From: a candidate division WWE3 bacterium
GTDB taxonomy: Bacteria > Patescibacteriota > WWE3 > UBA101185 > UBA10185
Direction of reading: 5' to 3'
Length of the DNA stretch: 64,000 nt
Assembly: GCA_012798115.1 (NCBI GenBank)
Contig: JAAZNV010000009.1
Coordinates: 10,156-74,155, forward strand
Below, piece by piece: positions 2,769 to 30,210 of this stretch. Every line of letters begins with the position of its first letter. The first letter of the stretch is position 1. The notes beneath the pieces were generated by a model. It was not told the DNA's origin, made no database searches, and saw only the letters and a program-made list of their open reading frames with translations. The translations under genes were made by a program, and so were the position numbers.

Positions 2769-5700
2769 ATGGCAAATAACCCTCTTTATCCTGGATATCA
2801 ACCAGGAAAGAAAAACGATGAAAATATTAATCCGTTATATCCTGGCTATTATGCAGGTCAACCTTTGCAAAGGAGACCATCTCCTAAGAATTACTTAAGA
2901 CCAATTGAATATGAAGGGGATAAAATTGCACAAGCACTTGATGAAACAGAGCAAGGGGTTCTAAAAACCATGAATGTACCAAAGTGGATAATAGAAAGAG
3001 TAGCTGATGATTGGAAGAGCAAGTACAAAATATCAATTAAGCCACCGGATATAGAAACTACAGAATTAGATGATTATGCAACCGAAGATTTTCCAGGTGC
3101 TGTTACCACATTAAATGTAGATCCTGGAAGCTGGAAAAAAGATGCAAAGAAAGAAGCTGTAAAGACAATAAAATCATGGGTTAAAGAATCCACTGGATTT
3201 GATACAGATAACCCTCTTAAAACTGATTTTTCTGATATAGAAAACAAGGTGAATCATGAGTTGTGGATTAGAGCATTAGGTTATGGAAAACCAGATACTT
3301 GGCTTGAGGAAAAGACAAGTATGGGAGTAGCAAAAAGGGTAGCTGCCCCATTTCCAAACTTAAGTGAGAATCTACAAAAAGGAGAAAATCCTTTAAACGT
3401 TAGAGACGTGGCTGTATGGTACGTAGATGATAATGGAAACAAAGTAGTAAAAAAAGATATCTATCATAATACAGCAGCTGCTGCTGCAGAGTTTGCAGAG
3501 CAAAGCAGCAATCCTAAAGTTAGAGATAAGCTTCACTCTCAATTTATAGCAAATGCTATAAGCGCTACAAATACAGAAATTCAAGCTAAGTTTAGAAATC
3601 CTGGAATAAAAGATAGATCTTTTTTGGATAAGTATGAAGGAGATGTAAAACTTTTTGACATAAAAACTCAAACTATAGACGACATTCGTAACCTACAAGA
3701 AAAAACCTTAAAAGGAACTACAAAAGAAATAAAGAAATCAATATTAAAAGGGGCTAAAAGAGATTCTTATGCATCAACTTGGGAAGAACTAGAGATTGCA
3801 TTAAATAAAGCAAGCAATAATCAAAAGACTAGAATGAAGAATGCAGAAACTCTTTTATCTCAAGGAAAGATCTCAAAAGAAGCTTTTGATAAGCTACAAA
3901 AGAGTGTAAATGACTATAACAGTTTCTTAGATAATGCGTTAGACAAAGTTACAGGAGCTAAAGATGGAAAACTTTCACCAACTATAGTTTTACACTCGCT
4001 AACTGGGGTTGGAGAAAAAAGTCTTGTAGAAGAAAATCTTTTCACAAAAAGTATAGTAGGAAAACTACAAAAGGATGCTGAGTACAGTATGATAAGTACC
4101 AAACCAGGTGAGATTGGAAGAATGTTACGTGATGATAACTTGAAGGCTCAAGGAATGAGTTTTAGCGCAGAAAAGATAAGTGCTGTTGCATATAGACTAA
4201 GAAGAGAAAAGATAGGACAACAAACCACTGAATTTTTAGAAGCAGTAAACGACCCTAAAAAGGCATTAGAAAGATATGCATGGAACAGGGTAACAAGCAG
4301 AATGTCTCCAAGATTAGCTGCATTTACTACTGGTGAGTACATTGAAAACAGATTAAAAAAGAGAAACTACTTTGGACTAAAAGTTGATGAAAGTGGAATA
4401 CCAAGTACCCTTAGCGGTTCAAAAAGGGCTGTAAGAAAATTTGAAAGATTCGAGAGAAAGTATGGATACAAAGTGGATATTAAGTTAGAGAAGAAATATT
4501 TTGGTGTCGGGAAATTAACCGTTAGAGGAGGGGACCAGTTTAAGATTTTAAACAACAAGCTACTTAAAGGACTTGATTCTGAAATCGATAAAGAATTTTT
4601 ATTGCATACCCTTGGAGATGGGAAAGTTACAGCAGATATGTTATCTAAAAAGTTTTTTGGTAAAACTTTTAAAGATTTAACTGGAGGAGAGAAAAAAGAA
4701 ATAGCTGCATTTGCAAGAGAATCCAGAGCTTATAGAGAATGGGTTAATAGCTTATCAGATAAATTTGGCGATAAAACAAAGCAAGGACTTTTTGGGTATG
4801 AATTATTCAAGAGAGTAAAAGGCAAGAATGATGAACTACCAAATGGGTATAGTCTTACAAGAAAATACGCTGGAAGGTTAGAAAAAGTTCACAAGAAGAT
4901 GTTAGAGGCAAAAGCTAAGTTTGAAAAGAGTGCTATTGGTAAGTTAATAAAAATAGCCAGCAACTGGAGAGAGATGGCAGCAGAGAAGATTGCTGAGTTG
5001 GTCTCTAAGTTAGTAGCTAAGTTAATAGGAGCTGTTGCAGGCTCAACTGGAATATTTGCAGTACTTGGACCAATAATAGAAAAGGCTGTTAATTTTGTGG
5101 TCAAAGAGGTTGTGAAGAGAGTAACAGATTTCTTCAGTGCTGTTGTAAAAGGGGATATAGACAAAGCATTTGAGGTTCTTGAGGAAGCTGCTAAGAAGTT
5201 TGCACTTGGGTGTTCACTAATATTTGCTCCATTTTTTGCTGCCATAATAAGTATTGTATTGCTGTTAGGTTCCATACTAGGTGGATCTGAATCTCCAATT
5301 GATAGAACTGCCGACTCGACATTAATAAAAAGTCAGACAGAGTTTGTCTCAGGAGAAAATGCAGTCGTTAAAATAACAAAGGGTGCAACTGTAAAGGTAC
5401 TAGGAACTGGAGAAACAATTACTAATCCAAACCATTTTGAAAACAGTGTTTTAAGAAGCGGCCTGCAAGTAACATACAAAGTGCATGTAACTCCAAAGAT
5501 TACTTTACCAAACGGATCAGTATTTTTTATAGATGAAGTGTTGGCAAGAAATGAAATGGATTCATGGAGTGTTAAAAACTACGGTACAACAATGGTAAAC
5601 CCGTTTATAGCAGGAAATACAATAACATACGATCTTACGCCACCTATCATTATAAAAGGTGATAAGTTTAAAGATTCTGTAGTAGCCAATACTGCCACAG

Positions 5701-6362
5701 CATACACTCCAGAGGTTGAAGATGTGGCAGAGGCTGAATCAGTAAGTGCAGTTAGAAGCTTTTCTATAGGAGATGCAATGTCGGATGTTCAAGGGTGTGA
5801 AGGGTATGACGTAGGAATATTGCCAGCTAGAGACCCCAATGCTAATAGAGTAGCCCAAAGAGCTTACGACATAGCATCTGGACTAGAAAGAGGTTTCTGG
5901 TGTGATTTTAACCAAAGCCATGACTACCCGCAGTTATGGGATAGTGGGTGGTGGGCACAGTATGGGGCATGGGGGTTAGATGTTGAAAAAGCTAGCACGG
6001 AAGGCGCTTATAAGCTATTTTGGTGTACATGGTTAGTCATAAAATCATATCAAGAAACCACAGATGAAAACTTTCCTGTTGCTACATACGTTCCAAATAT
6101 GAAAAAGTTCTTTGAAGAAAATACAGCAAAAGGATATTCGTATACACCTAGAGATGCAATAACAATAGATGAGATTCAGTCAGGAGATGTATTGTTCTTT
6201 AAAGGCCACGTGGCAATAATATACTCAAAGACATCTGATAGTGTTACTACTGTTGAGTCTAACAATATAAAACTCTCAGTTCCAATAACAACTGCTGAAG
6301 ATGGCCACCTGCCAGGAAGTCTTGGCAGATTAGAAATTATCGGTATTGGTCATAAAAGATAA
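2769..6362 (+). CDS. Giant (1197 aa) protein: large Lys-rich coiled-coil cytoplasmic region, two central TM segments, C-terminal extracytoplasmic CHAP/NlpC-P60-like cysteine peptidase (peptidoglycan hydrolase) domain
   Basis: No signal peptide. N-terminal repeat NPLYPGY x2. Hydrophobic segments VAKLIGAVAGSTGIFAVLGPII and FALGCSLIFAPFFAAIISIVLLLGSILGG. C-terminus has Cys (FWCTW/GFWCDF) and a GDVLFFKGHVAIIYS His motif typical of CHAP/NlpC-P60 amidases. Confidence 0.6.
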   Translation: MANNPLYPGYQPGKKNDENINPLYPGYYAGQPLQRRPSPKNYLRPIEYEGDKIAQALDETEQGVLKTMNVPKWIIERVADDWKSKYKISIKPPDIETTELDDYATEDFPGAVTTLNVDPGSWKKDAKKEAVKTIKSWVKESTGFDTDNPLKTDFSDIENKVNHELWIRALGYGKPDTWLEEKTSMGVAKRVAAPFPNLSENLQKGENPLNVRDVAVWYVDDNGNKVVKKDIYHNTAAAAAEFAEQSSNPKVRDKLHSQFIANAISATNTEIQAKFRNPGIKDRSFLDKYEGDVKLFDIKTQTIDDIRNLQEKTLKGTTKEIKKSILKGAKRDSYASTWEELEIALNKASNNQKTRMKNAETLLSQGKISKEAFDKLQKSVNDYNSFLDNALDKVTGAKDGKLSPTIVLHSLTGVGEKSLVEENLFTKSIVGKLQKDAEYSMISTKPGEIGRMLRDDNLKAQGMSFSAEKISAVAYRLRREKIGQQTTEFLEAVNDPKKALERYAWNRVTSRMSPRLAAFTTGEYIENRLKKRNYFGLKVDESGIPSTLSGSKRAVRKFERFERKYGYKVDIKLEKKYFGVGKLTVRGGDQFKILNNKLLKGLDSEIDKEFLLHTLGDGKVTADMLSKKFFGKTFKDLTGGEKKEIAAFARESRAYREWVNSLSDKFGDKTKQGLFGYELFKRVKGKNDELPNGYSLTRKYAGRLEKVHKKMLEAKAKFEKSAIGKLIKIASNWREMAAEKIAELVSKLVAKLIGAVAGSTGIFAVLGPIIEKAVNFVVKEVVKRVTDFFSAVVKGDIDKAFEVLEEAAKKFALGCSLIFAPFFAAIISIVLLLGSILGGSESPIDRTADSTLIKSQTEFVSGENAVVKITKGATVKVLGTGETITNPNHFENSVLRSGLQVTYKVHVTPKITLPNGSVFFIDEVLARNEMDSWSVKNYGTTMVNPFIAGNTITYDLTPPIIIKGDKFKDSVVANTATAYTPEVEDVAEAESVSAVRSFSIGDAMSDVQGCEGYDVGILPARDPNANRVAQRAYDIASGLERGFWCDFNQSHDYPQLWDSGWWAQYGAWGLDVEKASTEGAYKLFWCTWLVIKSYQETTDENFPVATYVPNMKKFFEENTAKGYSYTPRDAITIDEIQSGDVLFFKGHVAIIYSKTSDSVTTVESNNIKLSVPITTAEDGHLPGSLGRLEIIGIGHKR

Positions 6363-6388
6363 GATGATGGTATTATAGAAATATATTT

Positions 6389-6841
6389 ATGCGAATATTT
6401 AAGGAAAACAAGATAATACTCATAGCCTTAGTTTTACTAGTAACTGTCCTCTTGCTTTTTACCCTTAAGAAAGATACTAAGAACACAGATTTAAGTAGTT
6501 ATAAGAAAACTACTAGCGAACAAAAAAAAGGACAAGCAGCAACTGACACAAGTACAGAGAACAGTCTTCCAAATGATTACGAACATGCAGAAGCTATAAA
6601 AGAACTTCTCAAAGAATATCCGTGGTACTCAAAATTACCAATAGACAATAATGAATATACAATAGTATGGGATCTTGATATAGAGAAATTTAGAATACGA
6701 TTAAAGATACCTGAAACAAGTCCTCAAGAATCAAAGGATTCTTTGATTGCAAAAGCAGTAGAAGATATAAAAACACTAACTGGAGAAGATTTTCAAAAGT
6801 ACACCTATTACGTACTATACCCAAGGACAACACAAGATTAA
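6389..6841 (+). CDS. Small N-terminally membrane-anchored protein, unknown function
   Basis: N-terminal TM (IILIALVLLVTVLLLFTL) followed by a charged domain. Immediately downstream of the CHAP protein. Confidence 0.45.
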   Translation: MRIFKENKIILIALVLLVTVLLLFTLKKDTKNTDLSSYKKTTSEQKKGQAATDTSTENSLPNDYEHAEAIKELLKEYPWYSKLPIDNNEYTIVWDLDIEKFRIRLKIPETSPQESKDSLIAKAVEDIKTLTGEDFQKYTYYVLYPRTTQD

Positions 6842-6848
6842 TACAGAG

Positions 6849-7307
6849 TTAATAAGGGGAGTCAGGAACATCTAACAAATCATTTAATGCACCAAAAATA
6901 TTGCCTAAGACAGACGATGGTGACGTTATGCTGGTTATTCCAAATATTTTAGCAACTATTATAAATATTGAAAAAAACAAAACTATCACAAAAAAACCAT
7001 AAACTGCGTATGTCCATGTCTGTTGAGCACCTTCAAGTCCCCTAGGATCCCCTGTAGCCAAAGAAGCTTTAATAACCCCGTAAGCTATTAAAGCAACTAG
7101 TACACCACCAGAAGCATAAACAAGCGTATTAAATATTCTTCCAATTATGCCGTTTATCTGATCAAGAGATGGATTGTTATCCAAATCTGCAGCAAATACC
7201 TTTAAGATAAACAATTCAGCTGTAAATAAAAATATCATTAAGCTAGGAAGTAAGGAAGATACTTTTCCATGTATAACAATTGGGCTTAATTTTTTGTCTT
7301 TTTTCAT
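6849..7307 (-). CDS. VirB2/TrbC-like pilin-type small membrane protein, paralog 1 of 4; start refined to internal Met
   Basis: The listed ORF 6849..7400 overlaps the upstream gene by 88 bp. An internal ATG at 7305-7307 gives MKKDKKLSP...VFA|AD with a long signal-peptide-like N-terminus. Two hydrophobic helices flank TGDPRGLEGAQQTWTYAVYG, the motif shared by the three neighbours. Confidence 0.5.
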   Translation of the reverse strand: MKKDKKLSPIVIHGKVSSLLPSLMIFLFTAELFILKVFAADLDNNPSLDQINGIIGRIFNTLVYASGGVLVALIAYGVIKASLATGDPRGLEGAQQTWTYAVYGFFVIVLFFSIFIIVAKIFGITSITSPSSVLGNIFGALNDLLDVPDSPY

Positions 7308-7312
7308 ATCTG

Positions 7313-7618
7313 TTATATACCATTTGCTCCAATTAACTTCACAAGAATATCCTTTAATGCAAATGCAATCAAGACGACCACAAGACCTATGACAGACCAT
7401 GTAGCAGAACTTTGAGCTTTTTTTAAGAGCTTTTCATCTCCACGGCTCATAGCAAACTGTACGAAAGCAAACGCTAAAGTAACTACAGTTATACCCACAG
7501 CTATGATAATGGCAACATTAGCAGCCAATATTACCATAGACTGAGCGTTGCCAAACCTACTTGCAGCCTTATCACCAGATGCAAAGCTTCTTACAGCTGT
7601 TTCTAATGGTTCAAACAT
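7313..7618 (-). CDS. VirB2/TrbC-like pilin-type small membrane protein, paralog 2 of 4
   Basis: 101 aa with two TM helices flanking SRGDEKLLKKAQSSATWSVIG. Gap to the downstream gene is 5 nt. Confidence 0.5.
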   Translation of the reverse strand: MFEPLETAVRSFASGDKAASRFGNAQSMVILAANVAIIIAVGITVVTLAFAFVQFAMSRGDEKLLKKAQSSATWSVIGLVVVLIAFALKDILVKLIGANGI

Positions 7619-7644
7619 GTCATTAACCTATTAAATAAATAAAG

Positions 7645-7986
7645 CTAGTCGTTACCACCCAACAGATCGTCTTTTTGCCCCACAAGATTAAGTATTACAC
7701 CCTTAATAGCATAGACAAGGAACAAACCAACTCCGCCAATAACTGCATAAGTAACCCATTTCTGTGCTTGTTCCGTTGCAACCTTATCACCTTGTGATGT
7801 AATAAATCTAATAAATCCCATTGCAAGGAATACCACTACTAATGCTAGTCCAAGAATTATGACTAAGTTTGTGATCCACACAAAAACACTATTCAAATCA
7901 GTAAGTCTACCTCCTAAAGGATTGATAGGCTCTGTAGGAATATCAGTTGACGCAGCAAACACTTTTGTAACAAGTAAATCAAACAT
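7645..7986 (-). CDS. VirB2/TrbC-like pilin-type small membrane protein, paralog 3 of 4
   Basis: 113 aa with two TM helices flanking SQGDKVATEQAQKWVTYAVIG. Confidence 0.5.
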   Translation of the reverse strand: MFDLLVTKVFAASTDIPTEPINPLGGRLTDLNSVFVWITNLVIILGLALVVVFLAMGFIRFITSQGDKVATEQAQKWVTYAVIGGVGLFLVYAIKGVILNLVGQKDDLLGGND

Positions 7987-8017
7987 TTTATTACACCTCC
8001 TTAAATTTAATTAAACC

Positions 8018-8815
8018 TTAAATACTAATATTTCCTCCAATAAGTGAGTTGATTATAACTCTCAATATTGCAGCTGACAACAAAACAAAAATTATACCAA
8101 TAATAGCAGCAGTAAGTTGTCCTTGAGCATCTTGTGTTTTTTTAGGATCTCCTTCACTAGTCATTAGCATATAACCAGATATAACAACATAGCAAAAGCC
8201 AATAAAAAGTGCACCATAATATAATATCCTTGCAACAGGTGATATTAATTCTTGCCAGTTGGTGATCTTTGGACCTTTATATGAATCATTCAGAGATGGA
8301 CCACAAGTATTTATATTACATGTCATACCTGTACAACAATCAGATGGCTTTTCACATGGTTCTCCATATTTAGCACAAAAGAGATCTACAATTTCCTTTT
8401 TACAGCAAACTTCATTACTACCACAATTTCCTATAGCAATCTCCTTACACTTACCAGTTGGAACACATTTATGGGTACATTCTGTAATTAAAGCCCAACA
8501 TTTATCTGCTGTGTTACTACAAGAATAGCTAACCTGTTTGTAAAGGCTACCTGGGCTAGTGGGTGAACAGGTATAGCCTTTATCTGTACACTCATTTCCT
8601 GTTGGCTTCACCTTGCAACAAACGTTATTCATAGAACACGCACCTAAAAGGATGTGCGTAGTAGGGCAAGTAACAGCACTATAACATGTTCCACCTTCAT
8701 CTTTACACTCCTGCGGAGTTGTTACTGATGCACCATAAGACTTAGTTGAGGACAGAAAAATTATGAACCCTAAGAGAAATGAAAATGTAAGACACTTTGA
8801 AAATCTAGTTTTCAT
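8018..8815 (-). CDS. Secreted cysteine-rich (knottin/defensin-like repeat) domain fused to a C-terminal VirB2/TrbC-like pilin module (paralog 4 of 4)
   Basis: Signal peptide MKTRFSKCLTFSFLLGFIIFLSSTKSYG|A. About 170 aa with more than 20 Cys arranged in repeated C..C..CC blocks. The C-terminus (two TM helices flanking SEGDPKKTQDAQGQLTAAIIG) is paralogous to the three preceding genes. Confidence 0.5.
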   Translation of the reverse strand: MKTRFSKCLTFSFLLGFIIFLSSTKSYGASVTTPQECKDEGGTCYSAVTCPTTHILLGACSMNNVCCKVKPTGNECTDKGYTCSPTSPGSLYKQVSYSCSNTADKCWALITECTHKCVPTGKCKEIAIGNCGSNEVCCKKEIVDLFCAKYGEPCEKPSDCCTGMTCNINTCGPSLNDSYKGPKITNWQELISPVARILYYGALFIGFCYVVISGYMLMTSEGDPKKTQDAQGQLTAAIIGIIFVLLSAAILRVIINSLIGGNISI

Positions 8816-8880
8816 AATTAAATATTAACATAATAAAATTAGAGAAATATACATATATTTAACTGATATAATCTTCATAT

Positions 8881-10674
8881 ATGATCTCTTGCCCACATAA
8901 AAAAAGTATAAGGAAGGGTATAACCTTCATAACAATACTTTTATTTGTAATTCCTATGTTACTTTCCCTTAAGATTCAAAACACGTATGCAGAAGATAAG
9001 TGTAAAAACATATCGGACAAGGATGATCAAACAGAATGTTATGAAAATCTAGAAAAGGAAACACAAGCTAAGTTAAGTAGTACAAAATCTAAATTAGATA
9101 ACACATTAAATTCAATCAATCAACTATCTTCTCAACTAAATGTAACACAAGCACAACTCAACGATGTCCAATCAGATATAAACGATATAAAAGAAGAACT
9201 AGATCAAATAAATTCTGTATTAGAAGACAGAAATAATAAATTATCGGAAAAGATAACATTCAGAAACAACTTACTTAGAAACTACTCTAAGAAGAATGTG
9301 GTAAACGACTTGGAACTATTCTTTTCTAGCAACAAGGAAACAAACTTGAGTGGTTTTCAAACAGCTACTTTTATATATGCATTTAACAAAGCAACTAGTG
9401 GGAATATTTTAAAAATAATAGGAGCATTAAACTCTGAAATTAGAAACTATGAAAAAAACAAAGAAGAATCAGAAGAAATTAAGAAAGACCTAGAAATTGC
9501 ACAAAACAACTTAATATCTTTAAAGAAGGATTTAGATGCAAGAAAAGCTAATGCACAAAGCGAAGCAAATAAACTAGAAGAACAAAAAACAGAATACGAA
9601 GAAAAGCTAGAAGAGCTTCAAAGTAAAATATTAAGCTTAAAATATGGTGATGAAAGTGGTTCCGTTGGGGATTATGAGTCACCTTCATCCAAAACACCAT
9701 CCCCTCCGTTTGACAATGCATTTGCAGCATTTTCTTATGGAGCATATACCCATTACAACGGCATGAGCCAATATGGGGCAAAAGGCAGGGCTGAAGATGA
9801 AAAAAGCTATAAAGATATTATTAAGTTTTATTATGGTGAAAGTGTAAAAGAAAAAGATGACTTTCCAGAAAAAATATGTGTTGAAGGTTACGGAAATATG
9901 AGTTTTCAAAAATATCTTTACGGTATAGCTGAAATGCCAAGCTCTTGGGATGAAGATGCTCTAAAAGCTCAAGCAGTAGCTGCTAGATCTTATGCATACA
10001 AAAGAACCAAAGGTGGGGGGTGCATATGCACTACCCAAAGCTGTCAGGTCTTTTCAAAAAGCAAGTCTGACAACCCACCAGGAAGTTGGAAAAAAGCTGT
10101 CGATAACACTGAGAATGAAATAATAGGGGGAGATACAGGAAAATCAGGGTATGGCTGGTATTCATCAACAACGGGAGGATATCTTAACCAAGCAGGGTGG
10201 GACTTAGATGGAAAGTGGCCTGGACAAGCCTACGAAAAAAAAGCAGGATCACCATGGTTCTATAAAGCATGGTATACAAAAAGTTATAGTGATTCATCAA
10301 CATGTGGTCATTCACATCCATGGCTTACAGAAGAAGAAATGGCTGACATTATTAACTCATGGGTGGTTTATACAAAAGGATCTTCAAGTGAGAAAAGTCA
10401 TATTACCCCAAGAACAGAAAGTTGTTGGGGAGGTGATCCTTACTCTCTTGATGAAATGGCATCAAAAGCAGATAAATATGGGGATAAATATACAAACGTA
10501 TCAAAAGTTTGGGTTGATATAAGCAATTCTGGATATACATCAAAAGTTCACTTCCAGACAAATAATGGAGAAGTATCTATTGATGGAGCAACATTCAAGA
10601 CAGTCTTTAACTTAAGAGCTCCTGGATACGTTGCAATAAGAAGCAGACTCTACGATCTTGAATTAAGAGACTAA
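8881..10674 (+). CDS. Membrane-anchored coiled-coil protein with C-terminal SpoIID/LytB-like peptidoglycan-remodelling domain
   Basis: N-terminal TM/signal, then a long Q/N/E/K-rich heptad-like region. The C-terminal domain has AQAVAARSYAY and CICTTQSCQVF, resembling the SpoIID/LytB signature (AQAVAART..., TTxCQVY). Confidence 0.55.
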   Translation: MISCPHKKSIRKGITFITILLFVIPMLLSLKIQNTYAEDKCKNISDKDDQTECYENLEKETQAKLSSTKSKLDNTLNSINQLSSQLNVTQAQLNDVQSDINDIKEELDQINSVLEDRNNKLSEKITFRNNLLRNYSKKNVVNDLELFFSSNKETNLSGFQTATFIYAFNKATSGNILKIIGALNSEIRNYEKNKEESEEIKKDLEIAQNNLISLKKDLDARKANAQSEANKLEEQKTEYEEKLEELQSKILSLKYGDESGSVGDYESPSSKTPSPPFDNAFAAFSYGAYTHYNGMSQYGAKGRAEDEKSYKDIIKFYYGESVKEKDDFPEKICVEGYGNMSFQKYLYGIAEMPSSWDEDALKAQAVAARSYAYKRTKGGGCICTTQSCQVFSKSKSDNPPGSWKKAVDNTENEIIGGDTGKSGYGWYSSTTGGYLNQAGWDLDGKWPGQAYEKKAGSPWFYKAWYTKSYSDSSTCGHSHPWLTEEEMADIINSWVVYTKGSSSEKSHITPRTESCWGGDPYSLDEMASKADKYGDKYTNVSKVWVDISNSGYTSKVHFQTNNGEVSIDGATFKTVFNLRAPGYVAIRSRLYDLELRD

Positions 10675-22011: not shown

Positions 22012-23415
22012 TTAGTTGTTAAATATGATTTGTTTAACATTTACTATATCTTGAGTAGTTTTTCCTGTTTGAGCCATTTCAGCTTGAATTTTTCCTACCC
22101 CATGCATAACAGTAGTATGGTCTCTTCCTCCTAGGAATTCTCCAATTGTCATAAATGGCATGTCTGTAATTTCTTTCATTAAGTACATAGCAACTTGTCT
22201 TGGTATCACAAGCTCTTTATTTCTCCTTTTTCCTTTTAAGTCTTGGGCTTTTACAGAATAATAAAGGCAAACTGCTTTTAATATTTCATTAACATTGACG
22301 TTTTTCACTGCCTTTTCTCTTATTGTTTGACCAAGGGCTTTTGCTGCTAGATCAACGTTTAATTCCAAACCATTTGCTTTAGCATATGTAACTGCTTGTA
22401 AATAAGCTCCTTCTAGCTCTCTAATGTTTGAGTCAACTTTTTCTGCTATGTAGTTTATGACCTCATTTGGTACAAAATCCTTATTTTCATCTCTTTTTGC
22501 TCGTAGTATTGCTGCTCTCATTTCCATGTCTGGGTTTTGAATATCTGCAATTATTCCACTAGAAAACCTTGATGTTATTCTTTCTTCTAAATTAGTAAAA
22601 TCTTTTGGTGGCCTATCCGATGTAATAACAATTTGTTTCCCAGCCATGTACAAAGTATTAAACGTGTGAAAAAACTCTTCTTGAGTTGCTTCTCTCCCGA
22701 TAATGAACTGAACATCGTCTATTAGAAGAACATCTGCTTTTCTAAACTTTTCTCTAAATTGATTAGTAGTATATTGACCTTTTCCTTTTCCACTTTGTAT
22801 TGCTTCAATAAGCTCGTTAGTGAAGGCCTCTCCAGTTGTGTAAACAACTCTTACTCCTGGTTTTGATTCTATTACCTTATTTCCTATAGCTTGAATTAAA
22901 TGAGTTTTTCCAAGCCCAACTCTTGAATAAATGAAAACAGGATTGTATAACTCACCTGGTTTTTCAGCTACAGCAGTTGCTATTGCATATGCAAGGTTAT
23001 TGTTTTTTCCTATGATGTAGTTTTCAAATGTAAATTTAGAACTAAGATTAGACTTCTGCCTCTTTTCTTCCACCACAACACTTGGGTCTCTTTGTGATGA
23101 AAACAATGGTCCTAATTCGCCTTTTCCTTCCTTATCCATCCTACCATTCTTATCTGTGCTAACTTTTAGCTTAGTTTTTAAGTCTCTTCCAGCAGTATTT
23201 CTGATTGCTTTCTCTACGATATCTAGATACTTTTTTTCTAGATTTTTCTTAACGAAATCATCCTCACATGTTATTACAACTAAATTATCGTTTAAAGATT
23301 CTGCTTGAGTGCGAGCAATAACTGATTTGTATACCATGGGAGATATTTCTATCTCCACTTGCCCAAGAACCGTTTTCCAGAACCCTTTTAAGCTGTCAAA
23401 AGACTCAATATTCAT
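22012..23415 (-). CDS. dnaA: Chromosomal replication initiator DnaA
   Basis: Walker A GLGKTHL, AAA+ core, C-terminal DNA-binding helix-turn-helix (KELVIPRQVAMYLMKEITD...TIGEFLGGRDHTTVMHG). Confidence 0.95.
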   Translation of the reverse strand: MNIESFDSLKGFWKTVLGQVEIEISPMVYKSVIARTQAESLNDNLVVITCEDDFVKKNLEKKYLDIVEKAIRNTAGRDLKTKLKVSTDKNGRMDKEGKGELGPLFSSQRDPSVVVEEKRQKSNLSSKFTFENYIIGKNNNLAYAIATAVAEKPGELYNPVFIYSRVGLGKTHLIQAIGNKVIESKPGVRVVYTTGEAFTNELIEAIQSGKGKGQYTTNQFREKFRKADVLLIDDVQFIIGREATQEEFFHTFNTLYMAGKQIVITSDRPPKDFTNLEERITSRFSSGIIADIQNPDMEMRAAILRAKRDENKDFVPNEVINYIAEKVDSNIRELEGAYLQAVTYAKANGLELNVDLAAKALGQTIREKAVKNVNVNEILKAVCLYYSVKAQDLKGKRRNKELVIPRQVAMYLMKEITDMPFMTIGEFLGGRDHTTVMHGVGKIQAEMAQTGKTTQDIVNVKQIIFNN

Positions 23416-23462
23416 AGTTTATATGGGAAGGAACTACTTAACGTTAGTGTAAGATATATTAG

Positions 23463-23471
23463 TTATCCACA
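23463..23471 (+). promoter_or_regulatory. Perfect DnaA box (TTATCCACA) in the dnaA upstream region; likely autoregulatory site or oriC element
   Basis: Exact 9-mer consensus 45 nt upstream of the dnaA start. A second weaker box (AATCCACA on the reverse strand) lies at 23484-23491. Confidence 0.5.
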
Positions 23472-23505
23472 ATTATCAAGCAATGTGGATTGTTAAATTA
23501 GATTC

Positions 23506-24327
23506 TTAGAGTGCTTTTTCTTGATCCCTTTGAGCTTTATTACCTTTTTTCCTCATAAGCTCTGTGTAGTCTTCTTCTAAGTTCCCAGGTAGTGGAGAAA
23601 AATCTTCAAAATGATAAATTATTCCTTTTCTAAACAAATATTTAGGAGTCTTTCTATCCCAAATAACTATAGTGTCCACCTTTGCTCTTATAGATGATTC
23701 AACGCCCACAGGAGAATCTTCAAAAGCTAAGACTTCCTTAGGCTTTAGTTTAAAGGATTTTAGTGCCTTTCTGTATATTTCAGGACTTGGTTTTATTCTT
23801 TTTACTTCATCACCGCATATTATTAAGTCAAAAGCATCTTTAATATCAAGTTTATTAATTACAACATCTGCAATAGATCTTTTAGTGTTTGTTAAAAGGG
23901 CTAGTTTACAAGACTTCTTTTCTTTTAATTCATAAATCAAATCCCAAAATCCTTCTGTAGGTTCTATTTTTGAATTGTTTATTATGTTTATATATGCTTT
24001 CTCTGTTAAATCAATTAATTCATCTAGTGGTTCCTTTACTGCATGACCATACGTGGCTTTTATTACTTTCCATGATTCTGAAATAGGGTAGCCATATAAT
24101 TTGTAATCCCTTGCGTTTATATAGCTTACTTCAATATCATCCAATACTTTTTGAATAGCATTAGTCATCAATTCTTCTGTTTCTTTTACTACTGTTCCAT
24201 CTAAGTCAAAAAATACTGCTTTTTTTCCTTCAAATAATTTTTTATACATACTGTTTCTTAATTTTATATTTAAATGCTTATTATTTCTAGTGATTTTAAT
24301 ACTTACGTATTTGAGATATAACATCAT
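23506..24327 (-). CDS. HAD-superfamily hydrolase (phosphatase/beta-phosphoglucomutase-like)
   Basis: Motif I FFDLDGTVV plus downstream HAD motifs (LLTNT..., ...FEDS). Confidence 0.7.
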   Translation of the reverse strand: MMLYLKYVSIKITRNNKHLNIKLRNSMYKKLFEGKKAVFFDLDGTVVKETEELMTNAIQKVLDDIEVSYINARDYKLYGYPISESWKVIKATYGHAVKEPLDELIDLTEKAYINIINNSKIEPTEGFWDLIYELKEKKSCKLALLTNTKRSIADVVINKLDIKDAFDLIICGDEVKRIKPSPEIYRKALKSFKLKPKEVLAFEDSPVGVESSIRAKVDTIVIWDRKTPKYLFRKGIIYHFEDFSPLPGNLEEDYTELMRKKGNKAQRDQEKAL

Positions 24328-24346
24328 TTTTTGTTAGTATTTTAGT

Positions 24347-24571
24347 ATGGAAGAAAAAGAGTTTGAAGAAAGTAAAAATATTAAATTTAAATGTCCTAAT
24401 TGTGGCTCTCTGCAGAGGGATGATGTAGTCTTTTTATGCAATAAATGCAATCAATCGGAAATGTTGTATAAGGATGGTGTTTATATGTGTCCTTCGTGCT
24501 TAAAGCCTGGAGAAAATTTCGAATGCTTGAGATGTGGCTCTAAAGAAGTAGTGATGAAGATAAAAGAGTAG
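24347..24571 (+). CDS. Small zinc-ribbon protein (four CxxC pairs)
   Basis: CPNCGS...CNKCNQ...CPSC...CLRCGS within 74 aa. Confidence 0.45.
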   Translation: MEEKEFEESKNIKFKCPNCGSLQRDDVVFLCNKCNQSEMLYKDGVYMCPSCLKPGENFECLRCGSKEVVMKIKE

Positions 24572-25015
24572 TTATTCTATTCCTTTATCATCGTAGTACA
24601 TTCTTAAAATATAAGCAGCTGCTAAATGGTCGTTTGTCTTTCTATGCTTCTCTGAAATTCCTAAATCTAATGCTTCCTCAAACGCTCTTGCTGAAGACCC
24701 ATACTCATTTTGAGTCTCAACAGGCCTTTTTGTGTTGGTTTTTAATATTTTTGCAAATCTTCTTATTTCAATAGACTCTGCAGTATCTTTTCCTTCCATT
24801 GTCAATGGCAGACCTAGAATAATGAGCTCTACTTTATTCTCAATAACTACCCTGTTTATTCTTATAAGAGCGTTGTTAGTGTTTTTAGCTGAAATTACTT
24901 CTAAAGGAGTAACTAACCCATTTCTCCCAAGTGCCAAGCCAATATTTGCTCTACCATAATCCACTCCAAGTATAGTAGCAGAATCGTATTTAATCTTTTT
25001 ACTATTCATTATCAT
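24572..25015 (-). CDS. ruvX: Putative pre-16S rRNA nuclease / Holliday-junction resolvase-like YqgF
   Basis: ILGVDYGRANIGLALG...ELIILGLP...AAAYILRMYYD; RuvX/YqgF blocks. Overlaps the upstream gene by 4 nt. Confidence 0.75.
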   Translation of the reverse strand: MIMNSKKIKYDSATILGVDYGRANIGLALGRNGLVTPLEVISAKNTNNALIRINRVVIENKVELIILGLPLTMEGKDTAESIEIRRFAKILKTNTKRPVETQNEYGSSARAFEEALDLGISEKHRKTNDHLAAAYILRMYYDDKGIE

Positions 25016-26565
25016 TCCTTCTCTATAGTAATTTGTATTCTGCTTATATCTTTGGGTATGTTTCTAAAAAATGGCACTGCTGGACTAAGACGAAACTCAT
25101 ATGAGTTAACGTTCTTAATTGATCCTAATAGACTCTGTGCTTCTGCTGCAGATTTTCCTCTAAGTTGGTTTTTAATATCTTCCTCATTAATATTAGGAAC
25201 AATAAAAGTTTTAAGAGTAACTTGAATGTCTGCTTCTTGTGAAGTTAAAACACTACTGGTAGAGCTTCCAAGTACCTCTACTTTAACTTCTCTGTCTTGT
25301 TCTGATAGTGCAAACCCTTCTGGTATTACATCTTTAACATATTCATCTATAAACTTATTTAGTTCACTTTCCATGTATGCTAAACCCTCTCCACTTACAG
25401 TTTGGGTGAGAGATATTTTTTCTGCTTCATCCCCAATATTTTTGGTAAAACTATCTTTAATTATTTGAACTTGAGTTGAGCCTGCAACTAGCTTTTGTCC
25501 AATACCCAACTTACTCTTGATGTCCTCCTCAGCCTTTTTTGTACTAACCAGTTTCAGCTCAGTAGATATATTGTTTCTATCATCTGATGTAACTATTTTT
25601 ACTTCCTCACTCTTTCCACCATCTATATCACTTTTGGTCTTTGCAGCAAGTTCACTCTTTTTATATCCAGAAACTTCAAGTGATTTTCCATCATCTATAT
25701 TAAAAGATTCCCCAACACTAGAAGCAATGATGTCCACAGTTGCTTCTCCTGCAATATTGACCTCAGGATTAGAAGAATTTTCTGTGCTAGCTGGAATATC
25801 AACATCGTCTTTAAGATAATAATTCAAGTCTGTTGATTTTCCTTCGTAAACAACCTTATCTCCTTTATCAAGACTTATTTCTTTGGATGTTTTATTGTAC
25901 AAGGTTATCTCTCCTTCAGCCTTTTCCCCAACTGTTTTTGTGCCAGTAGTATCCTTTTCTAAGGTTGACTCTATATTCGTTGCTATAGTAGTTCCTCTAA
26001 GAACCTTGTTTTGTACGCTTGTTGAAGCACTATTTTTAACTTTTATAGTTACACTTTTTGTTAATGCTTGTGAGTGAACAGATATTTTTACACTTGCTTT
26101 TGGGGCCTTTAAACCATAGAAAATGAAACTAGCAAGTAAAGTAAGTAATATAAGAACTGGAGTGAGCACCTTCTTCTTTCCACTTGTTAGTTTTCTTATA
26201 AAATTTAGCGGTGCAATATTAATCTTTTTAGATTTGAAAATATTCATGGGAAGAGTGATCACTTTTTGTTTTGATTGCTTTGCTGTAGCTTCTATTAATG
26301 TCTGGTCTTCTTCTATGTATGGTTGTTCGGGACCTCCTCCTATAACTGACGAAAGGAGGCTATTTCCTATTTCATCATCAGTTGCAAAATCAATACTTTT
26401 TTCCATCTTATCAGCTTCATACTGAATAAGCTTAATATTTAATGAGTTTTCAAATAAGACAGATTCTTTTGGGATGTTTACCTCGATATTTAAATCAGTA
26501 ATGCTTTTTATCTTGCTTATTGCGGTAACAACATCATCGTTGGGTTGTAAATATAGTTTAATCAT
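25012..26565 (-). CDS. Bitopic membrane protein: ~125-aa cytoplasmic N-domain, one TM, ~370-aa Ser/Thr/Lys/Glu-rich beta-rich extracytoplasmic domain; unknown function
   Basis: TM VLTPVLILLTLLASFIFYGL. No family recognised. Last-but-one gene of an operon with the actin-like and FtsK/HerA-like ATPase genes. Confidence 0.4.
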   Translation of the reverse strand: MIKLYLQPNDDVVTAISKIKSITDLNIEVNIPKESVLFENSLNIKLIQYEADKMEKSIDFATDDEIGNSLLSSVIGGGPEQPYIEEDQTLIEATAKQSKQKVITLPMNIFKSKKINIAPLNFIRKLTSGKKKVLTPVLILLTLLASFIFYGLKAPKASVKISVHSQALTKSVTIKVKNSASTSVQNKVLRGTTIATNIESTLEKDTTGTKTVGEKAEGEITLYNKTSKEISLDKGDKVVYEGKSTDLNYYLKDDVDIPASTENSSNPEVNIAGEATVDIIASSVGESFNIDDGKSLEVSGYKKSELAAKTKSDIDGGKSEEVKIVTSDDRNNISTELKLVSTKKAEEDIKSKLGIGQKLVAGSTQVQIIKDSFTKNIGDEAEKISLTQTVSGEGLAYMESELNKFIDEYVKDVIPEGFALSEQDREVKVEVLGSSTSSVLTSQEADIQVTLKTFIVPNINEEDIKNQLRGKSAAEAQSLLGSIKNVNSYEFRLSPAVPFFRNIPKDISRIQITIEKE

Positions 26566-26574
26566 ATATTTTAA

Positions 26575-27777
26575 CTAAATTCCTAGTATCTCCTTATAAA
26601 TAATAGACGCAGCTACTGTATACAACCAATCAGAACTTAATAACTCTCCTGTGGCATAAGATACTTTTGATAAATCAGATAAGGATAATTTGGCTATCTC
26701 TAGACTAGCTTTAAATGGAATTGTTTTAGTCCATGGTTCTTCTTTTAGAGCGTTTTCAATATCTGGTATTTCAGCTCCACATCCGGATAGAAATATTTTG
26801 TTTGAAAACATTTTTATTCCAGAAAAATCTTCAAATAGCAACTTAATTCCATCAATCCACAAGCTTGTTATTCCTTTCAAGCATTTCTCGACGGTTATCC
26901 TCTCACTTTCTGAAAGTTTTTCTTGGTTGTACATATTTAATACATTTTCAGCATCTTTTGGTGATAAACCCATGTTTAACCCCACTGCTTCTATGAAGTG
27001 TGTATGTCCAATATTTAGGGTTTTAGATGAAACTATGCCACCACCAAATACAACTCCTACATCAGTTGAGTCTTCTGCAATACTAATTAAGACAAAATCT
27101 AGAATGTTTTTTGGAGGGTTTTTAAACCATTCAACAACTGAATACATCTGAGATCCTAATGCAATTAATTCAAGGCCTGATTTTTTAATTATTCCTTGAA
27201 TGGATTTAACGTGAAAACTTGGAGCAAAAGAATTGTACACTGCAGCTTCAATTGTCTCCCCACGCTGGCCCTCAAGTATTGCTACATTTTGATTATCTAT
27301 TTTTAAATAAATGTCAGACGTTGTTATTGAATCTAGTTCTAAATCTGGATCTCCAGTGTTCTGAAGAACTTTGTTATGTGCTTGAATATATGAAGCTTCT
27401 GTAATTCTGGAGTAAAGTTCTTCCACCTCATCAGCCTTAATAGGATCTGTTGTTGCTCTTTTTAGTCTTACCGTTGTAGTAAGTCCTAGTGTAATTCCGC
27501 CATCAATAGCAATTATTGTTTTTCTTGTTTTATCCTCTAAATTTTCTGTTGCTTTACTAACAACCTCTTTTATTGCTTCGCTAACCCCTTCTTTATTAAT
27601 AACCATTCCATTCCTTACGTAACCTTTCTCTAGGTTCTTTTTTCCTGACCCAATTATTTTAAATAAATCCCCATCGAAAAAGAATGCAACACATCTAACA
27701 TCCTTAGCATTTACATTCAAAGATAAGAACTTATTTGTGTTGGTATCTACTTTTTCTAAAAAAGGCAGATTAAACAT
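26575..27777 (-). CDS. Actin-fold ATPase of the FtsA/PilM family
   Basis: N-terminal glycine-rich phosphate loop region and a GHTHFIEAVGLNMGLSPKDAENVL block resembling the FtsA/PilM GG...AE..K motif; 400 aa. No ftsZ nearby. Confidence 0.5.
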   Translation of the reverse strand: MFNLPFLEKVDTNTNKFLSLNVNAKDVRCVAFFFDGDLFKIIGSGKKNLEKGYVRNGMVINKEGVSEAIKEVVSKATENLEDKTRKTIIAIDGGITLGLTTTVRLKRATTDPIKADEVEELYSRITEASYIQAHNKVLQNTGDPDLELDSITTSDIYLKIDNQNVAILEGQRGETIEAAVYNSFAPSFHVKSIQGIIKKSGLELIALGSQMYSVVEWFKNPPKNILDFVLISIAEDSTDVGVVFGGGIVSSKTLNIGHTHFIEAVGLNMGLSPKDAENVLNMYNQEKLSESERITVEKCLKGITSLWIDGIKLLFEDFSGIKMFSNKIFLSGCGAEIPDIENALKEEPWTKTIPFKASLEIAKLSLSDLSKVSYATGELLSSDWLYTVAASIIYKEILGI

Positions 27778-27801
27778 TAGATTGATTATACAAATAGTAA
27801 G

Positions 27802-30210
27802 TTAAAACGGAAAGTTTGTTCGGTTTATGCTTGGTTCTTCTTGTGAGGCAGGTTCTTCTGAAAGTCTTCTGTTAATGAACTCTTCAACTTCTTGAACAGG
27901 AGTTCCATATTTTATTCTTGATAATTCTCTAATCTCGTCTGCTACCCTAGGATCTTTTTTGACAGAAGATAGGTCATTCCAATCTATCCATAAAGAAAAG
28001 GGTGGGGAAGGCTGCCCTCTTACTAAAAGCCTCATATAAGCATTTCCTGTTGGAAGATTGCTTAAATCTTGTTTTGTAAATGTTGGTGCAAACTGAGGTT
28101 CTAAAAATTCTGCATCTTCTACACCGACTCTAAAAGAACATATTGTTCCAACGTTTCCAAACACAGCTTCTTTTATATCTTCTTCAAGTTGTTGAATAAA
28201 CTGATGTGCTACAGTCAAATTAAGCTTGTATTTTCTAGCTTCTGAAAGGATAGTAGCAAAATCAGGTGTGGCAAAATTTTGAAACTCATCTACATACAAG
28301 AAGAAATTAGGAAAATCTCCATGAAGCTTGTGTCTTCTTAACGCTGATGCAAGTATTCTTGGGACGAACAATAATCCGATAAAGTTGGAGTTTTCTTCAC
28401 CAATTTTCCCTTTTGCAAGGTCCACCAAAAGTATTTTCTTCTCAGCCATTATTTGGTCAAAGTTGAATGAGGATTTAGGTTGTCCAATTATATTTCTCAT
28501 AGTTTTATCTGTTGTAATTCTGTCGAATTTAGACACAAAGTATCCCATTGTTTCGCCTTTCCTACTTGCTGTTGTTTTAGCCATCTCATCTGTCCAGTAT
28601 CTTCTAACAAGAGGATCAGTTAGCTTGTCTAAAAATTTCTTGGAGTAGCTCTCGTCAATAAATAATCTCAAAACATCTATCATTGTTGCTTCTGGATCAA
28701 CCATTGCAGTAAGCATCACATTTCTAATTGATCTCTCAAGAAGAGGGCCCATTATTCCTTGCTTGTTTGGATCATATAGTTTGTAGAGTAGGGCAATAAA
28801 TGCATTTATTATCATATTTTTTTCTTCATCAGTTTGAGCTTCAAGTAAGTTGAGTCCTAAAGGCCTTTCCGTATCTGCAGCATCAAACAAAATGACATCC
28901 TCTTTCCTTTCTGGGGGTATTTTTTGAAGTAGCTCGTCAATGTCTGTTCCATGGGGGTCAATAATTGCAACCCCTTCTCCTCTTTTAATATCTTGGAGTG
29001 CGCACCACATTAAGAATTGAGACTTTCCAGATCCTGTTTGTCCAACTATATACATATGTCTTGTTCTATCTTCGTCAAGCATATGAATTTCCTTTTCCAC
29101 TCCTCTAAATATACTTTTCCCTAAGAAGATTCCTTCATCTGGTAGCTCTACTGGAGCAGAGGATTTTCTAGCGATAAGCCACAAAATATTGGGTGTACCA
29201 ATGTCTTTGTTTGGAAAATGAAATACTGTAGCCATTTCTATATTGTTTAATACAGAAACGTTTGAGTATAACTGTATGCTAAGCATTGGAATGTTTATGT
29301 TTTTAATTCTTAATCTTCTGTATATGAAATCATTTACGTATTTTTTGGGGGATATTAAGAATCTTCTTACAAATCTGTTGTATGAAACATCTGTAAACTG
29401 TTCAAATGCCCCTACCATATTATGCATTTGAGAATCTGCAGTCATCTTATCACTTGCAACTGATACTATTCTTATTTTTATATAAAACCCTGGATTGGAT
29501 ATCTTGTTCTCAACTCCTTCAAGAAACTTTTCATCTATATTTATCTTCTTGTCTGGATTTGCTGCTTTTGCTCTAACATTAGATATAAATCTTCTACCTG
29601 CCATTCTCCAATCATCATCTGCAGGTTGGATTACGTACTGAACAGCAGTTACTTGATCCACCCTCATTTTACTCATAGCTGATGTTATAGGGCTTAAAGA
29701 ATCACTCTTTAAATCTTCATATTGTTTTATTGGATAGAAAGCAGGTCCTTTGAGCTTTAACTCTGTAATTCTAGTAAATTTTCCTCTATCCCATACTTCA
29801 TGTGGTTTTACTATATCTACTTGAGCAGCAGGGTACGCTGCATTTATTTGTTTTTCCACAAGAGATGCAATTTCATCAGGTGTTACGACGTAAAAAGCTA
29901 TTCCTTCTGCCTTAGAAACTATTTCAAAGGATATTCTATATTGCCCTGTAAATAATGCTTTCCAAAAACCTTTTTTAAACCCAATGAGGCTAGAAAACAT
30001 ATGTTCTGCGGCTTTTATTTCTATCTCATTGTCATTAGGTAAAAGAACTTGAAAAAACGTTAAGTTATATTGTGTTTGTTTCTCCTTTCTTTTCCTAAGC
30101 CATGAAGCAACTCCTAGAGTGATAAATGTCAATAAAAACACAGAAACTATCAAGTAAATAGAAATCCAAAATGTATTGTATAAAGTGTTATTTACTTCCA
30201 TGGGCAGCAA
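27802..30210 (-). CDS. FtsK/HerA-superfamily P-loop ATPase of the T4SS VirB4/VirD4 (TraC/TraG) type, N-terminal TM anchor
   Basis: One N-terminal TM. Walker A HMYIVGQTGSGKSQ followed by GEGVAIIDPHG. Walker B FLYVDEFQNF then SEARKYKLNLTVAHQ, matching the VirB4/VirD4 pattern DEF...aRKyg..l.l.tQ. Confidence 0.6.
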   Translation of the reverse strand: MLPMEVNNTLYNTFWISIYLIVSVFLLTFITLGVASWLRKRKEKQTQYNLTFFQVLLPNDNEIEIKAAEHMFSSLIGFKKGFWKALFTGQYRISFEIVSKAEGIAFYVVTPDEIASLVEKQINAAYPAAQVDIVKPHEVWDRGKFTRITELKLKGPAFYPIKQYEDLKSDSLSPITSAMSKMRVDQVTAVQYVIQPADDDWRMAGRRFISNVRAKAANPDKKINIDEKFLEGVENKISNPGFYIKIRIVSVASDKMTADSQMHNMVGAFEQFTDVSYNRFVRRFLISPKKYVNDFIYRRLRIKNINIPMLSIQLYSNVSVLNNIEMATVFHFPNKDIGTPNILWLIARKSSAPVELPDEGIFLGKSIFRGVEKEIHMLDEDRTRHMYIVGQTGSGKSQFLMWCALQDIKRGEGVAIIDPHGTDIDELLQKIPPERKEDVILFDAADTERPLGLNLLEAQTDEEKNMIINAFIALLYKLYDPNKQGIMGPLLERSIRNVMLTAMVDPEATMIDVLRLFIDESYSKKFLDKLTDPLVRRYWTDEMAKTTASRKGETMGYFVSKFDRITTDKTMRNIIGQPKSSFNFDQIMAEKKILLVDLAKGKIGEENSNFIGLLFVPRILASALRRHKLHGDFPNFFLYVDEFQNFATPDFATILSEARKYKLNLTVAHQFIQQLEEDIKEAVFGNVGTICSFRVGVEDAEFLEPQFAPTFTKQDLSNLPTGNAYMRLLVRGQPSPPFSLWIDWNDLSSVKKDPRVADEIRELSRIKYGTPVQEVEEFINRRLSEEPASQEEPSINRTNFPF

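Follow-up and report, generated by a model that had tools for sequence, protein, structure and literature searches.

A PF18895 pilin gene array in a WWE3 bacterium, headed by a cysteine-rich lead pilin whose ectodomain is replaced between strains

The window analysed here is a stretch of 64,000 nucleotides from a candidate division WWE3 bacterium (GenBank assembly GCA_012798115.1, contig JAAZNV010000009.1, positions 10,156 to 74,155 of the forward strand), and the subject of this study is an array of four small genes within it, A to D, that resemble pilin genes of type IV secretion systems (T4SSs) and of which the first carries a cysteine-rich domain that is exchanged between strains (Table 1). 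An earlier note, made from the sequence alone, had described four paralogous pilin-type genes between 6849 and 8815, and this description holds: all four lie on the minus strand within that interval, belong to the T4SS_pilin family PF18895, and share a C-terminal module; the four motif strings quoted in that note are exact. Pairwise local alignments of the modules score 5.8 to 18.1 standard deviations (z) above 1000 residue shuffles, at most 1 in 1000 of which reached the observed score, indicating that the shared motif is conserved beyond compositional bias. Its columns G-D, A-Q, T and G are invariant across all four modules. Each module contains two long hydrophobic stretches, and A and D have an additional N-terminal stretch of the signal-peptide type. 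The genes are separated by gaps of 31 (A-B), 26 (B-C) and 5 (C-D) nucleotides. B, C and D are only 19-29% identical to A and contain no cysteine.

The PF18895 profile has a curated cut-off of 26.6 bits, which A, B and D pass and C does not. At E<=0.01 the profile matches all of the 47 sampled members of the family (47/47). At NCBI the product of A has an exact counterpart, NMB91721.1 (candidate division WWE3 bacterium), which carries the public name "DUF4282 domain-containing protein". This name rests on a 16-bit match over the pilin module, below the DUF4282 cut-off of 27, and is probably a mis-annotation, judging by the PF18895 match that does pass its own cut-off. By profile assignment, the array is one of PF18895 pilins, the type known as VirB2-like in Patescibacteria, and its products classify as T4SS pilins and not as subunits of type IV pili. 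"VirB2-like" is used here as the structural annotation of the literature, the genes themselves being filed under PF18895. The reading as type IV pilins (class III) was considered and rejected; the proteins have two C-terminal hydrophobic helices, no G↓FxxxE motif and no match to a type IV pilin family.

Table 1. Features of the pilin array and of its surroundings. Positions are those of the window; bits are profile scores, TM stands for transmembrane helix, and the arrow marks the predicted cleavage site.
Feature	Position (strand)	Length or residues	Basis and remarks
Gene A, lead pilin	8018..8815 (-)	265 aa	Open reading frame; signal peptide, cysteine-rich ectodomain and T4SS_pilin hairpin; PF18895 27.3 bits (residues 189-254)
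Signal peptide of A	8732..8815 (-)	residues 1 to ~28	MKTRFSK, hydrophobic core, SYG↓AS
Cysteine-rich ectodomain of A	8282..8731 (-)	residues 29-178	22 Cys (14.6%); no Pfam match
Pilin module of A	8021..8281 (-)	residues 179-265	Helix 187-219, loop TSEGDPKKTQDAQ, helix 224-260
Strain-variable cassette	8340..8811 (-)	codons 2 to ~158 of A	Signal peptide and most of ectodomain; no blastn match to the sibling strain (L001)
Divergent intergenic region, A / SpoIID-like gene	8816..8880 (.)	65 nt	Fully conserved between strains up to the ATG of A
Promoter-like site	8052..8080 (-)		TTGTCA-17-TATAAT, 11/12 matches; inside 3' end of A, just upstream of B
Gene B, plain pilin	7645..7986 (-)	113 aa	PF18895 28.2 bits
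Gene C, plain pilin	7313..7618 (-)	101 aa	PF18895 20.0 bits (below cut-off); paralog of B, z = 18.1
Gene D, pilin	6849..7307 (-)	152 aa	Long signal peptide, ~35-aa C-terminal tail; PF18895 30.0 bits
SpoIID-domain secreted coiled-coil protein	8881..10674 (+)	597 aa	PF08486 67 bits; beside the array in 37 related loci
Membrane protein with C-terminal CHAP-like hydrolase domain	2769..6362 (+)	1197 aa	CHAP 24 bits (cut-off 26); 29 related loci
Protein with one N-terminal TM	6389..6841 (+)	150 aa	Weak Big_5 Ig-like match in relatives; 24 related loci
VirB4/VirD4-like ATPase	27802..30210 (-)	802 aa	DUF87, TraG-D_C and T4SS-DNA_transf matches

The product of gene A begins with a signal peptide, in which the -3/-1 rule, applied by eye, places the cleavage site; a hydrophobic 19-mer covers residues 5-23, and AlphaFold predicts a helix at residues 2-23. 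The protein contains 24 cysteines, 22 of them in the mature ectodomain and a single one each in the signal peptide and the first transmembrane helix (TM1). The pilin module at its C-terminus is modelled as a helical hairpin with a predicted local distance difference test score (pLDDT) of about 70-77. The claim that the first gene is fused to a cysteine-rich secreted domain is thus borne out as regards the fusion, the signal peptide and the number of cysteines (more than 20, namely 22), and has to be corrected as regards length, which is about 150 and not about 170 residues. The further description of this domain as "knottin-like" has not been borne out: the spacing of its cysteines does not exceed chance expectation, no Pfam family matches, none of the curated disulfide-rich families (knottin, defensin-like, EGF-like) is recovered with the ectodomain, and the AlphaFold pLDDT of this part is ~30. 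There is one C-x6-C-x5-CC-x4-C-x4-C pattern, as in inhibitor cystine knot (ICK) peptides, from about residue 147, which shuffling returns with p = 0.28 at 22 cysteines in ~150 residues, and there are two beta-defensin-like patterns (C-x6-C-x5-C-x9-C-x5-CC), returned with p = 0.057. In the relative P0119, which has exactly six cysteines, the C-C-CC-C-C pattern is significant (p = 0.001), and in P0002 and P0003 it is repeated three times in tandem.

Across the family, the number of cysteines is even in 43 of the 44 distinct ectodomains after crude removal of the signal segment (binomial p = 2.6e-12), indicating that the cysteines are probably all paired and that the domain is extracellular. Nearly all of these 44 ectodomains have an N-terminal hydrophobic segment of the signal type. 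The annotated open reading frames of the window include none of the disulfide-forming enzymes MdbA, VKOR or Dsb; genomes of the Candidate Phyla Radiation (CPR) are enriched in MdbA-like oxidoreductases and VKOR (bioRxiv 10.1101/335083). When compared with 1.84 billion representative proteins, the ectodomain of A finds only itself and P0003, the latter through its membrane-proximal part. At the level of sequence similarity the cassette of the window is without a relative outside its own locus family among these representatives.

The three other genes encode plainer proteins. B is a candidate for the major subunit; it is preceded by the strongest ribosome-binding site of the array (AAGGAGG), and AlphaFold models it as a hairpin of helices 31-63 and 68-102 with a pLDDT of 85-95. 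The promoter-like site within the end of A may serve B to D as a promoter of their own, allowing expression independent of, and stronger than, that of the lead gene; it is only a lead, as the total of promoter-like sites in the region is not above shuffle expectation. The open reading frame listed for D runs from 7400 to 6849, and the start compatible with an operon is the inner ATG at 7307 (MKKDKK...), 5 nucleotides past the stop codon of C; D is called at the same 152 residues in the sibling strain. D and its orthologues carry a tail of about 35 residues after the second helix (ITSITSPSSVLGNIFGALNDLLDVPDSPY; 6849-6950, minus strand), which the other pilins do not have. B and C lack a proper signal peptide and begin with a leader-like N-terminus of 12-14 residues (7948-7986 and 7577-7618, minus strand). 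The motif of this leader, M-(L/I/F)-K-x-x-L-(V/I)-x-x-V-(Y/F)-A↓A, is common to the B-type pilins of many species (P0011-P0104). In D and A, which have true signal peptides, these are followed by the same VFA↓A (or SYG↓A) motif, which may represent a dedicated processing site.

The ectodomain of A is replaced as a cassette with defined breakpoints, and tandem lead genes are gained and lost. The clearest case is the comparison by blastn of the window with contig Ga0302250_1000031 (locus L001), which is 98.9% identical to the window over flanks of 10.0 kb and 8.3 kb, with the same genes at the same lengths. Within these flanks, positions 8340-8811 of the window and 10005-10440 of L001 (472 and 436 nucleotides) have no detectable similarity. 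The two sequences agree at all of the 70 upstream bases compared (70/70) and in the start codon, and one base beyond it the match breaks off. Similarity builds up again by degrees inside the last cysteine repeat, and the match is complete from about codon 159, some 20 codons before the pilin module, which is 100% identical between the two strains and 56-74% identical to that of other species. The 5' anchor of recombination is presumed to be the intergenic stretch that separates A from the SpoIID-like gene. The L001 ectodomain has no homology to the ectodomain of the window and is an ordinary orthologue of the one in the distant locus L007 (57% identity), whose B is 60% identical. A metagenome scan for further near-identical strains returned only L001, the remaining loci belonging to different species.

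The same pattern of a conserved module and a replaced ectodomain has arisen independently in at least four further clades. In two populations from one sample (L003 and L005), the modules are 99% identical and the ectodomains are at noise level; in L079, L080 and L081, B is 100%, the module 99-100% and the ectodomain 27-35% identical; and L011/L012 and L024/L036 behave alike. In total, 42 ectodomain types are found in 52 loci, and 13 loci with modules at least 95% identical hold five ectodomain types (235-362 residues). Some ectodomain types are very distant homologues of each other (about 33-36% identity), with modules in those pairs that are 99-100% identical. The converse case is also seen, in which identical ectodomains adjoin B genes that are only 72-89% identical; similarly, the lead module can be 95-100% identical where B is only 72-89% identical. 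Locus L008 (297-2911) has two tandem lead genes of 319 and 445 residues with identical modules and a duplicated upstream region, and L106 (2861-3820), which is the same locus at 99.9% identity, has only the first of them, a direct sign that the conserved parts recombine with each other. L031, L034, L041, L043, L056 and L058 likewise have two or three lead genes in tandem. Cassette P0001 is present on 6 contigs and P0002 on 10, from several independent sources, so the replacement is not an assembly artefact. Mutagenesis by a diversity-generating retroelement was considered and rejected, since the alleles are replaced (unalignable over 436-472 nucleotides) and not point-mutated, and no reverse transcriptase is among the annotated open reading frames of the window. 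Neither silent donor cassettes nor a second cysteine-rich open reading frame are present in the window.

The architecture of the lead gene is widespread. All eight homologues of A from a search of 5.8 billion proteins (8/8) retain the C-terminal module, and their cysteine-rich N-terminal parts are unalignable. With an A-type module profile, 67 loci were found in species-representative genomes of WWE3, Levy-, Woese-, Roizman-, Uhr-, Magasanikbacteria and others. Of 59 arrays, 41 begin with a gene that is extended N-terminally by 100 residues or more, and in 38 of the 41 this extension has at least six cysteines; the pilins downstream of the lead gene or genes have no comparable extension. The largest, in proteins of 603 and 620 residues from two WWE3 genomes, have 58 cysteines, the domain reaching about 560 residues. 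The paralog types occur in the order A-B-C-D in 36 loci, with the variants AABCD and AAABCD, indicating that the four genes are position-specific orthologues and not recent duplicates; A to D presumably have different structural roles. Other lead pilins carry fn3 or CarboxypepD_reg domains. There is a second kind of fusion, in which the T4SS_pilin module lies near the N-terminus and is followed by the Ig-like domains Big_5, Big_2 and IPT/TIG, in proteins of 525 to more than 2100 residues; it is found in L050, L057, L065, L071 and L073 (Uhr- and Magasanikbacteria) and in L068 (Saccharibacteria), often as two such genes in tandem.

Arrays of such pilins are known. VirB2-like pilins have been recorded in 1948 Patescibacteria assemblies (Quinonero-Coronel et al. 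2025, PMC12102498), with 441 arrays of 2-11 pilin genes in 383 assemblies, ~25% identity within arrays, and T4SSs often near dnaA. The same work, in a survey of 3,035 genomes, found no PrgB-type adhesin in Patescibacteria. In Southlakia epibionticum ML1, a six-gene pilin array inside the T4SS cluster is essential (Wang et al., PMC10633639; 2025 review PMC12857230), and a pilus on a T4SS of the Gram-positive type is considered possible in the same publications. In Paceibacterales that parasitise methanogens, T4SS pilins rank among the unknown genes with the highest expression (PMC10936435), and a 2024 perspective calls the role of the patescibacterial T4SS "completely unknown". Tandem T4SS_pilin arrays being known already, the array itself is not new. 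The accounts found (PMC12102498, PMC10633639, PMC12857230, PMC10936435 and those reached by full-text searches) make no mention of a lead pilin with a cysteine-rich or hypervariable ectodomain, and it is this hypervariable, cassette-exchanged, disulfide-rich lead pilin within a known type of array that is new here. The present array shares with the published ones the family, the phylum, tandem divergent paralogs of about 25-30% identity and the chromosomal setting with a VirB4-like ATPase near dnaA. It differs from them in its cysteine-rich lead, cassette replacement and fixed A-B-C-D orthology, the published pilins having been described as small and variable; moreover, virB4 does not adjoin the array in this lineage.

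The relation to the classical conjugative pilins VirB2, TrbC and TraA is one of general design. The window proteins share with them the two-helix hairpin with a short polar loop and, in A and D, a signal or leader peptide. They differ in that the envelope is monoderm, B and C are without a long leader peptide, and no sequence or fold match to these pilins is significant. In relatives of the array, matches to the TrbC/VirB2 family PF04956 fall exactly on the module, all below the cut-off of 27.9 bits, in L068 (23.0 bits, E 9e-5), L024 (18.5 bits, 2e-3) and L058 (17.6 bits, 4e-3). To our knowledge, no canonical VirB2 pilin has a passenger domain, and we know of no earlier case in which a pilin of this type serves as the carrier of one.

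The window as a whole is an ordinary patescibacterial chromosome of low GC content (about 0.34), with dnaA, genes for ribosomal protein L25 and tRNA synthetases, dnaK, lepA, glycolysis genes, a sortase gene and murJ. The array has conserved flanks, which consist of the SpoIID protein, the 1197-residue membrane protein and three small or uncharacterised proteins; this neighbourhood fits a wall-crossing apparatus. The 1197-residue protein with the CHAP-like end, which has no relative among the sequences of the Protein Data Bank (PDB), is a candidate for a VirB1-like wall-opening enzyme. In L003 the relative of this protein (6103-9699) has a weak Peptidase_M23 match, and in the comparison of L003 with L005 (5024-8566) it is the least conserved part, with 69% identity and gaps. 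The wall-hydrolase end of this protein may likewise be subject to exchange among lineages. The VirB4/VirD4-like ATPase, 4.4 kb from dnaA (22012-23415), is the only recognisable T4SS motor in the window. Beside it, no open reading frame has a Pfam match to VirB3, VirB6 or VirB8; the flanking ones of 517, 400 and 108 residues (22012-30514, minus strand) match no Pfam family and may be divergent VirB6-, VirB8- or VirB3-like partners. Elsewhere in the window, two open reading frames look shortened: one of 281 residues (44736-45581, minus strand) matches only the N-terminal domain of aldehyde:ferredoxin oxidoreductase, and the phosphoglycerate kinase of 324 residues (45858-46832, minus strand) matches its profile in two stretches.

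On the basis of these observations, we propose, with a probability of about one in two, that the array is the pilin operon of a WWE3 T4SS and that A is its two-part lead subunit, in which a hairpin is joined to a displayed, exchangeable adhesin head. Sequence comparison establishes what the proposal builds on: the four belong to the pilin family and are paralogs, they keep the order A-B-C-D, and the ectodomain is extracytoplasmic and disulfide-rich. According to it, B, C and D would be plain VirB2-like hairpin pilins that build the shaft or base, and the conserved C-terminal hairpin would dock A into the same assembly. The N-terminal ectodomain of A would be exported by the Sec route, fully disulfide-bonded and pointing outward. 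Given a signal peptide ahead of the ectodomain and disulfide bonds within it, TM1 is expected to run from outside to inside, so that the conserved loop (S/T-x-G-D...A-Q) would be cytoplasmic in the membrane state and the C-terminus outside. In the F- and T-pilus structures, both termini of the VirB2-type pilin face the outside of the assembled pilus. With this topology a passenger at either end would be displayed, and the fusions found in related pilins are consistent with it. A would be incorporated first and hence lie at the filament tip, or at least on the surface, as the binding subunit. Being encoded first in the operon and having a bulky head, A is probably located at the tip. The earlier note had suggested that the domain serves as adhesin or tip, built onto a pilin, alongside three plain subunits; the fusion to a pilin scaffold is found, relatives carry fn3, Big_2, Big_5 and TIG fusions, and the adhesin or tip role is plausible. 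From these sequences we infer that a pilus is formed, that A sits at its tip and serves as an adhesin, and that host specificity is the selective driver.

Exchange of the ectodomain alleles would proceed by homologous recombination, with the upstream intergenic region and the pilin module as anchors, and would alter what the filament binds, that is, host or target specificity, or what recognises the filament. It is possible, though we hold it only tentatively and would not bet on it, that in these ultra-small episymbionts the head is the determinant of host or target recognition at the tip of a Gram-positive-type T4SS pilus, that cassette exchange, probably through natural transformation, re-targets the host, and that such a modular system is general across Patescibacteria, with N-terminal disulfide-rich heads in WWE3 and Microgenomatia and C-terminal Ig-like heads in Paceibacteria-type groups and Saccharibacteria. 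As the binding subunit at the tip, A would fill the role that VirB5 plays in Gram-negative T4SSs; no VirB5 has been recognised, and no PrgB found, in Patescibacteria. In the current model, VirB5 is a minor subunit that starts pilus assembly, is located at the tip and mediates contact (PMC12857230). The likeness lies in the proposed assembly-starting, tip-contact role; homology is neither detected nor expected, and the tip function would here reside on a VirB2-type module and not on a separate fold.

A similar two-domain design is familiar from other pili. In FimH and PapG, a receptor-binding domain is fused to a docking pilin domain, with one such adhesin per operon alongside plain subunits. 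A has this adhesin-plus-pilin layout, whereas folds and assembly machinery are unrelated, and FimH varies by point mutation where A varies by replacement of the whole domain. With respect to variation, the multiple divergent pilus-surface genes for host binding or immune evasion, trwL and trwJ of the Bartonella Trw system and the virB2 paralogs of Anaplasma (PMC12102498), are comparable. More loosely, so are Neisseria pilE/pilS and the mosaics of phage tail fibres, in which alleles are likewise exchanged between conserved flanks. The present case differs in that no silent cassettes were found in the window, the variation is known between strains and populations and not within one genome, and a whole disulfide-rich domain is exchanged together with its signal peptide.

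Several observations weigh against the proposal that the array forms a T4SS pilus with A as its displayed adhesin. The VirB4-like ATPase lies 19 kb (16 genes) from the array with housekeeping genes in between, and within 4-6 kb on either side of the matched pilin VirB4 is absent from all related loci. None of the four window proteins matches PF04956, even at E<=1. A profile of the 47-member family, compared with the PDB sequences, retrieves no conjugative pilin, only designed proteins and unrelated transmembrane segments, and the fold searches return generic helical hairpins, with the archaeal conjugative pilin 8dfu at ranks 4 and 2 and E >= 0.95. The AlphaFold2 model of full-length A, built on an alignment of nine sequences, is unusable for fold assignment over residues 25-184, and no Pfam family, including those of toxins, knottins and defensins, matches residues 1-188 at E<=1. 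B and C are without a normal signal peptide that would explain their export and processing, and the argument for a tip location is one of gene order and bulk only. Finally, no filament has so far been shown for any patescibacterial T4SS (PMC12857230).

A rather unlikely but serious alternative is one in which the two-helix module is a membrane anchor, or an embedded part of a secretion channel, and no pilus is made; the cysteine-rich domain would then be an adhesin, receptor or shield at the cell surface, and B to D small membrane subunits. T4SSs of the Gram-positive type normally have no pilus, and none has been observed in Patescibacteria (PMC12102498, PMC12857230), neither the fold searches nor those of the PDB tie the proteins specifically to conjugative pilins of solved structure, and the array adjoins wall-remodelling enzymes and not VirB4. 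However, a mere anchor does not readily account for a lead module that is 95-100% identical where B is 72-89% identical, or for a gene order fixed across species, both of which point to a specific multi-subunit assembly. The sub-threshold TrbC/VirB2 matches that fall exactly on the module argue in the same direction, and the sortase encoded in the window indicates that an ordinary route of surface display is already present.

Other alternatives accept the displayed head and differ as to its purpose. The head might vary in order to evade phages, predators or competitors for which the pilus or surface protein is a receptor, with binding being secondary. Conjugative pili are classical receptors of phages, and the replacement of alleles at 98.9% identity, the many alleles per clade and the occurrence of alleles across diverged backgrounds are the signature of negative frequency-dependent selection. 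As the main explanation this is improbable, since it leaves unexplained the adhesin domains (fn3, Big_2, Big_5, TIG) on related modules, as well as the retention of the domain and its growth to about 560 residues; evasion and target recognition are not mutually exclusive drivers. Slightly less probable again is a tethered or released toxin, in which the cysteine-rich repeats would be membrane-active modules of the knottin or defensin kind, carried to the envelope of the host on the end of the apparatus or else cut off and released, and varying as polymorphic toxins do. The ICK- and defensin-like patterns of A, their tandem copies in P0002 and P0003 and their significance in P0119 speak for this idea, but in A itself they are not above chance, no toxin, knottin or defensin family matches, and neither a cleavage site nor a toxin-type domain was found in the protein. 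It is further weakened by the swapped segment being entirely intragenic, so that no immunity gene travels along with the cassette. That the four are unrelated small membrane proteins of the holin or immunity type, alike only in hydrophobic composition, and that the strain difference is an assembly artefact, is hardly credible. The modules are indeed short and hydrophobic and their Pfam scores barely exceed the cut-off, but the z scores of 5.8-18, the 47/47 matches to PF18895, the gene order in 36 loci, the cassettes on multiple contigs and the even cysteine number in 43 of 44 ectodomains contradict it.

Patescibacteria need their T4SS for growth on a host, and the lead pilin is a testable candidate for the part of this apparatus that touches the outside world. 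No other piece of the otherwise 99%-identical region changes as fast as its ectodomain, and the same architecture is found in many lineages. If it is true that A sets host range, cassette types could serve to assign hosts to uncultivated CPR populations in metagenomes and could guide co-culture. A VirB2-type pilin that acts as the carrier of a passenger domain would also bear on how a pilus is constructed by T4SSs of the monoderm type, and the ectodomains constitute a large pool of small disulfide-rich folds without known relatives.

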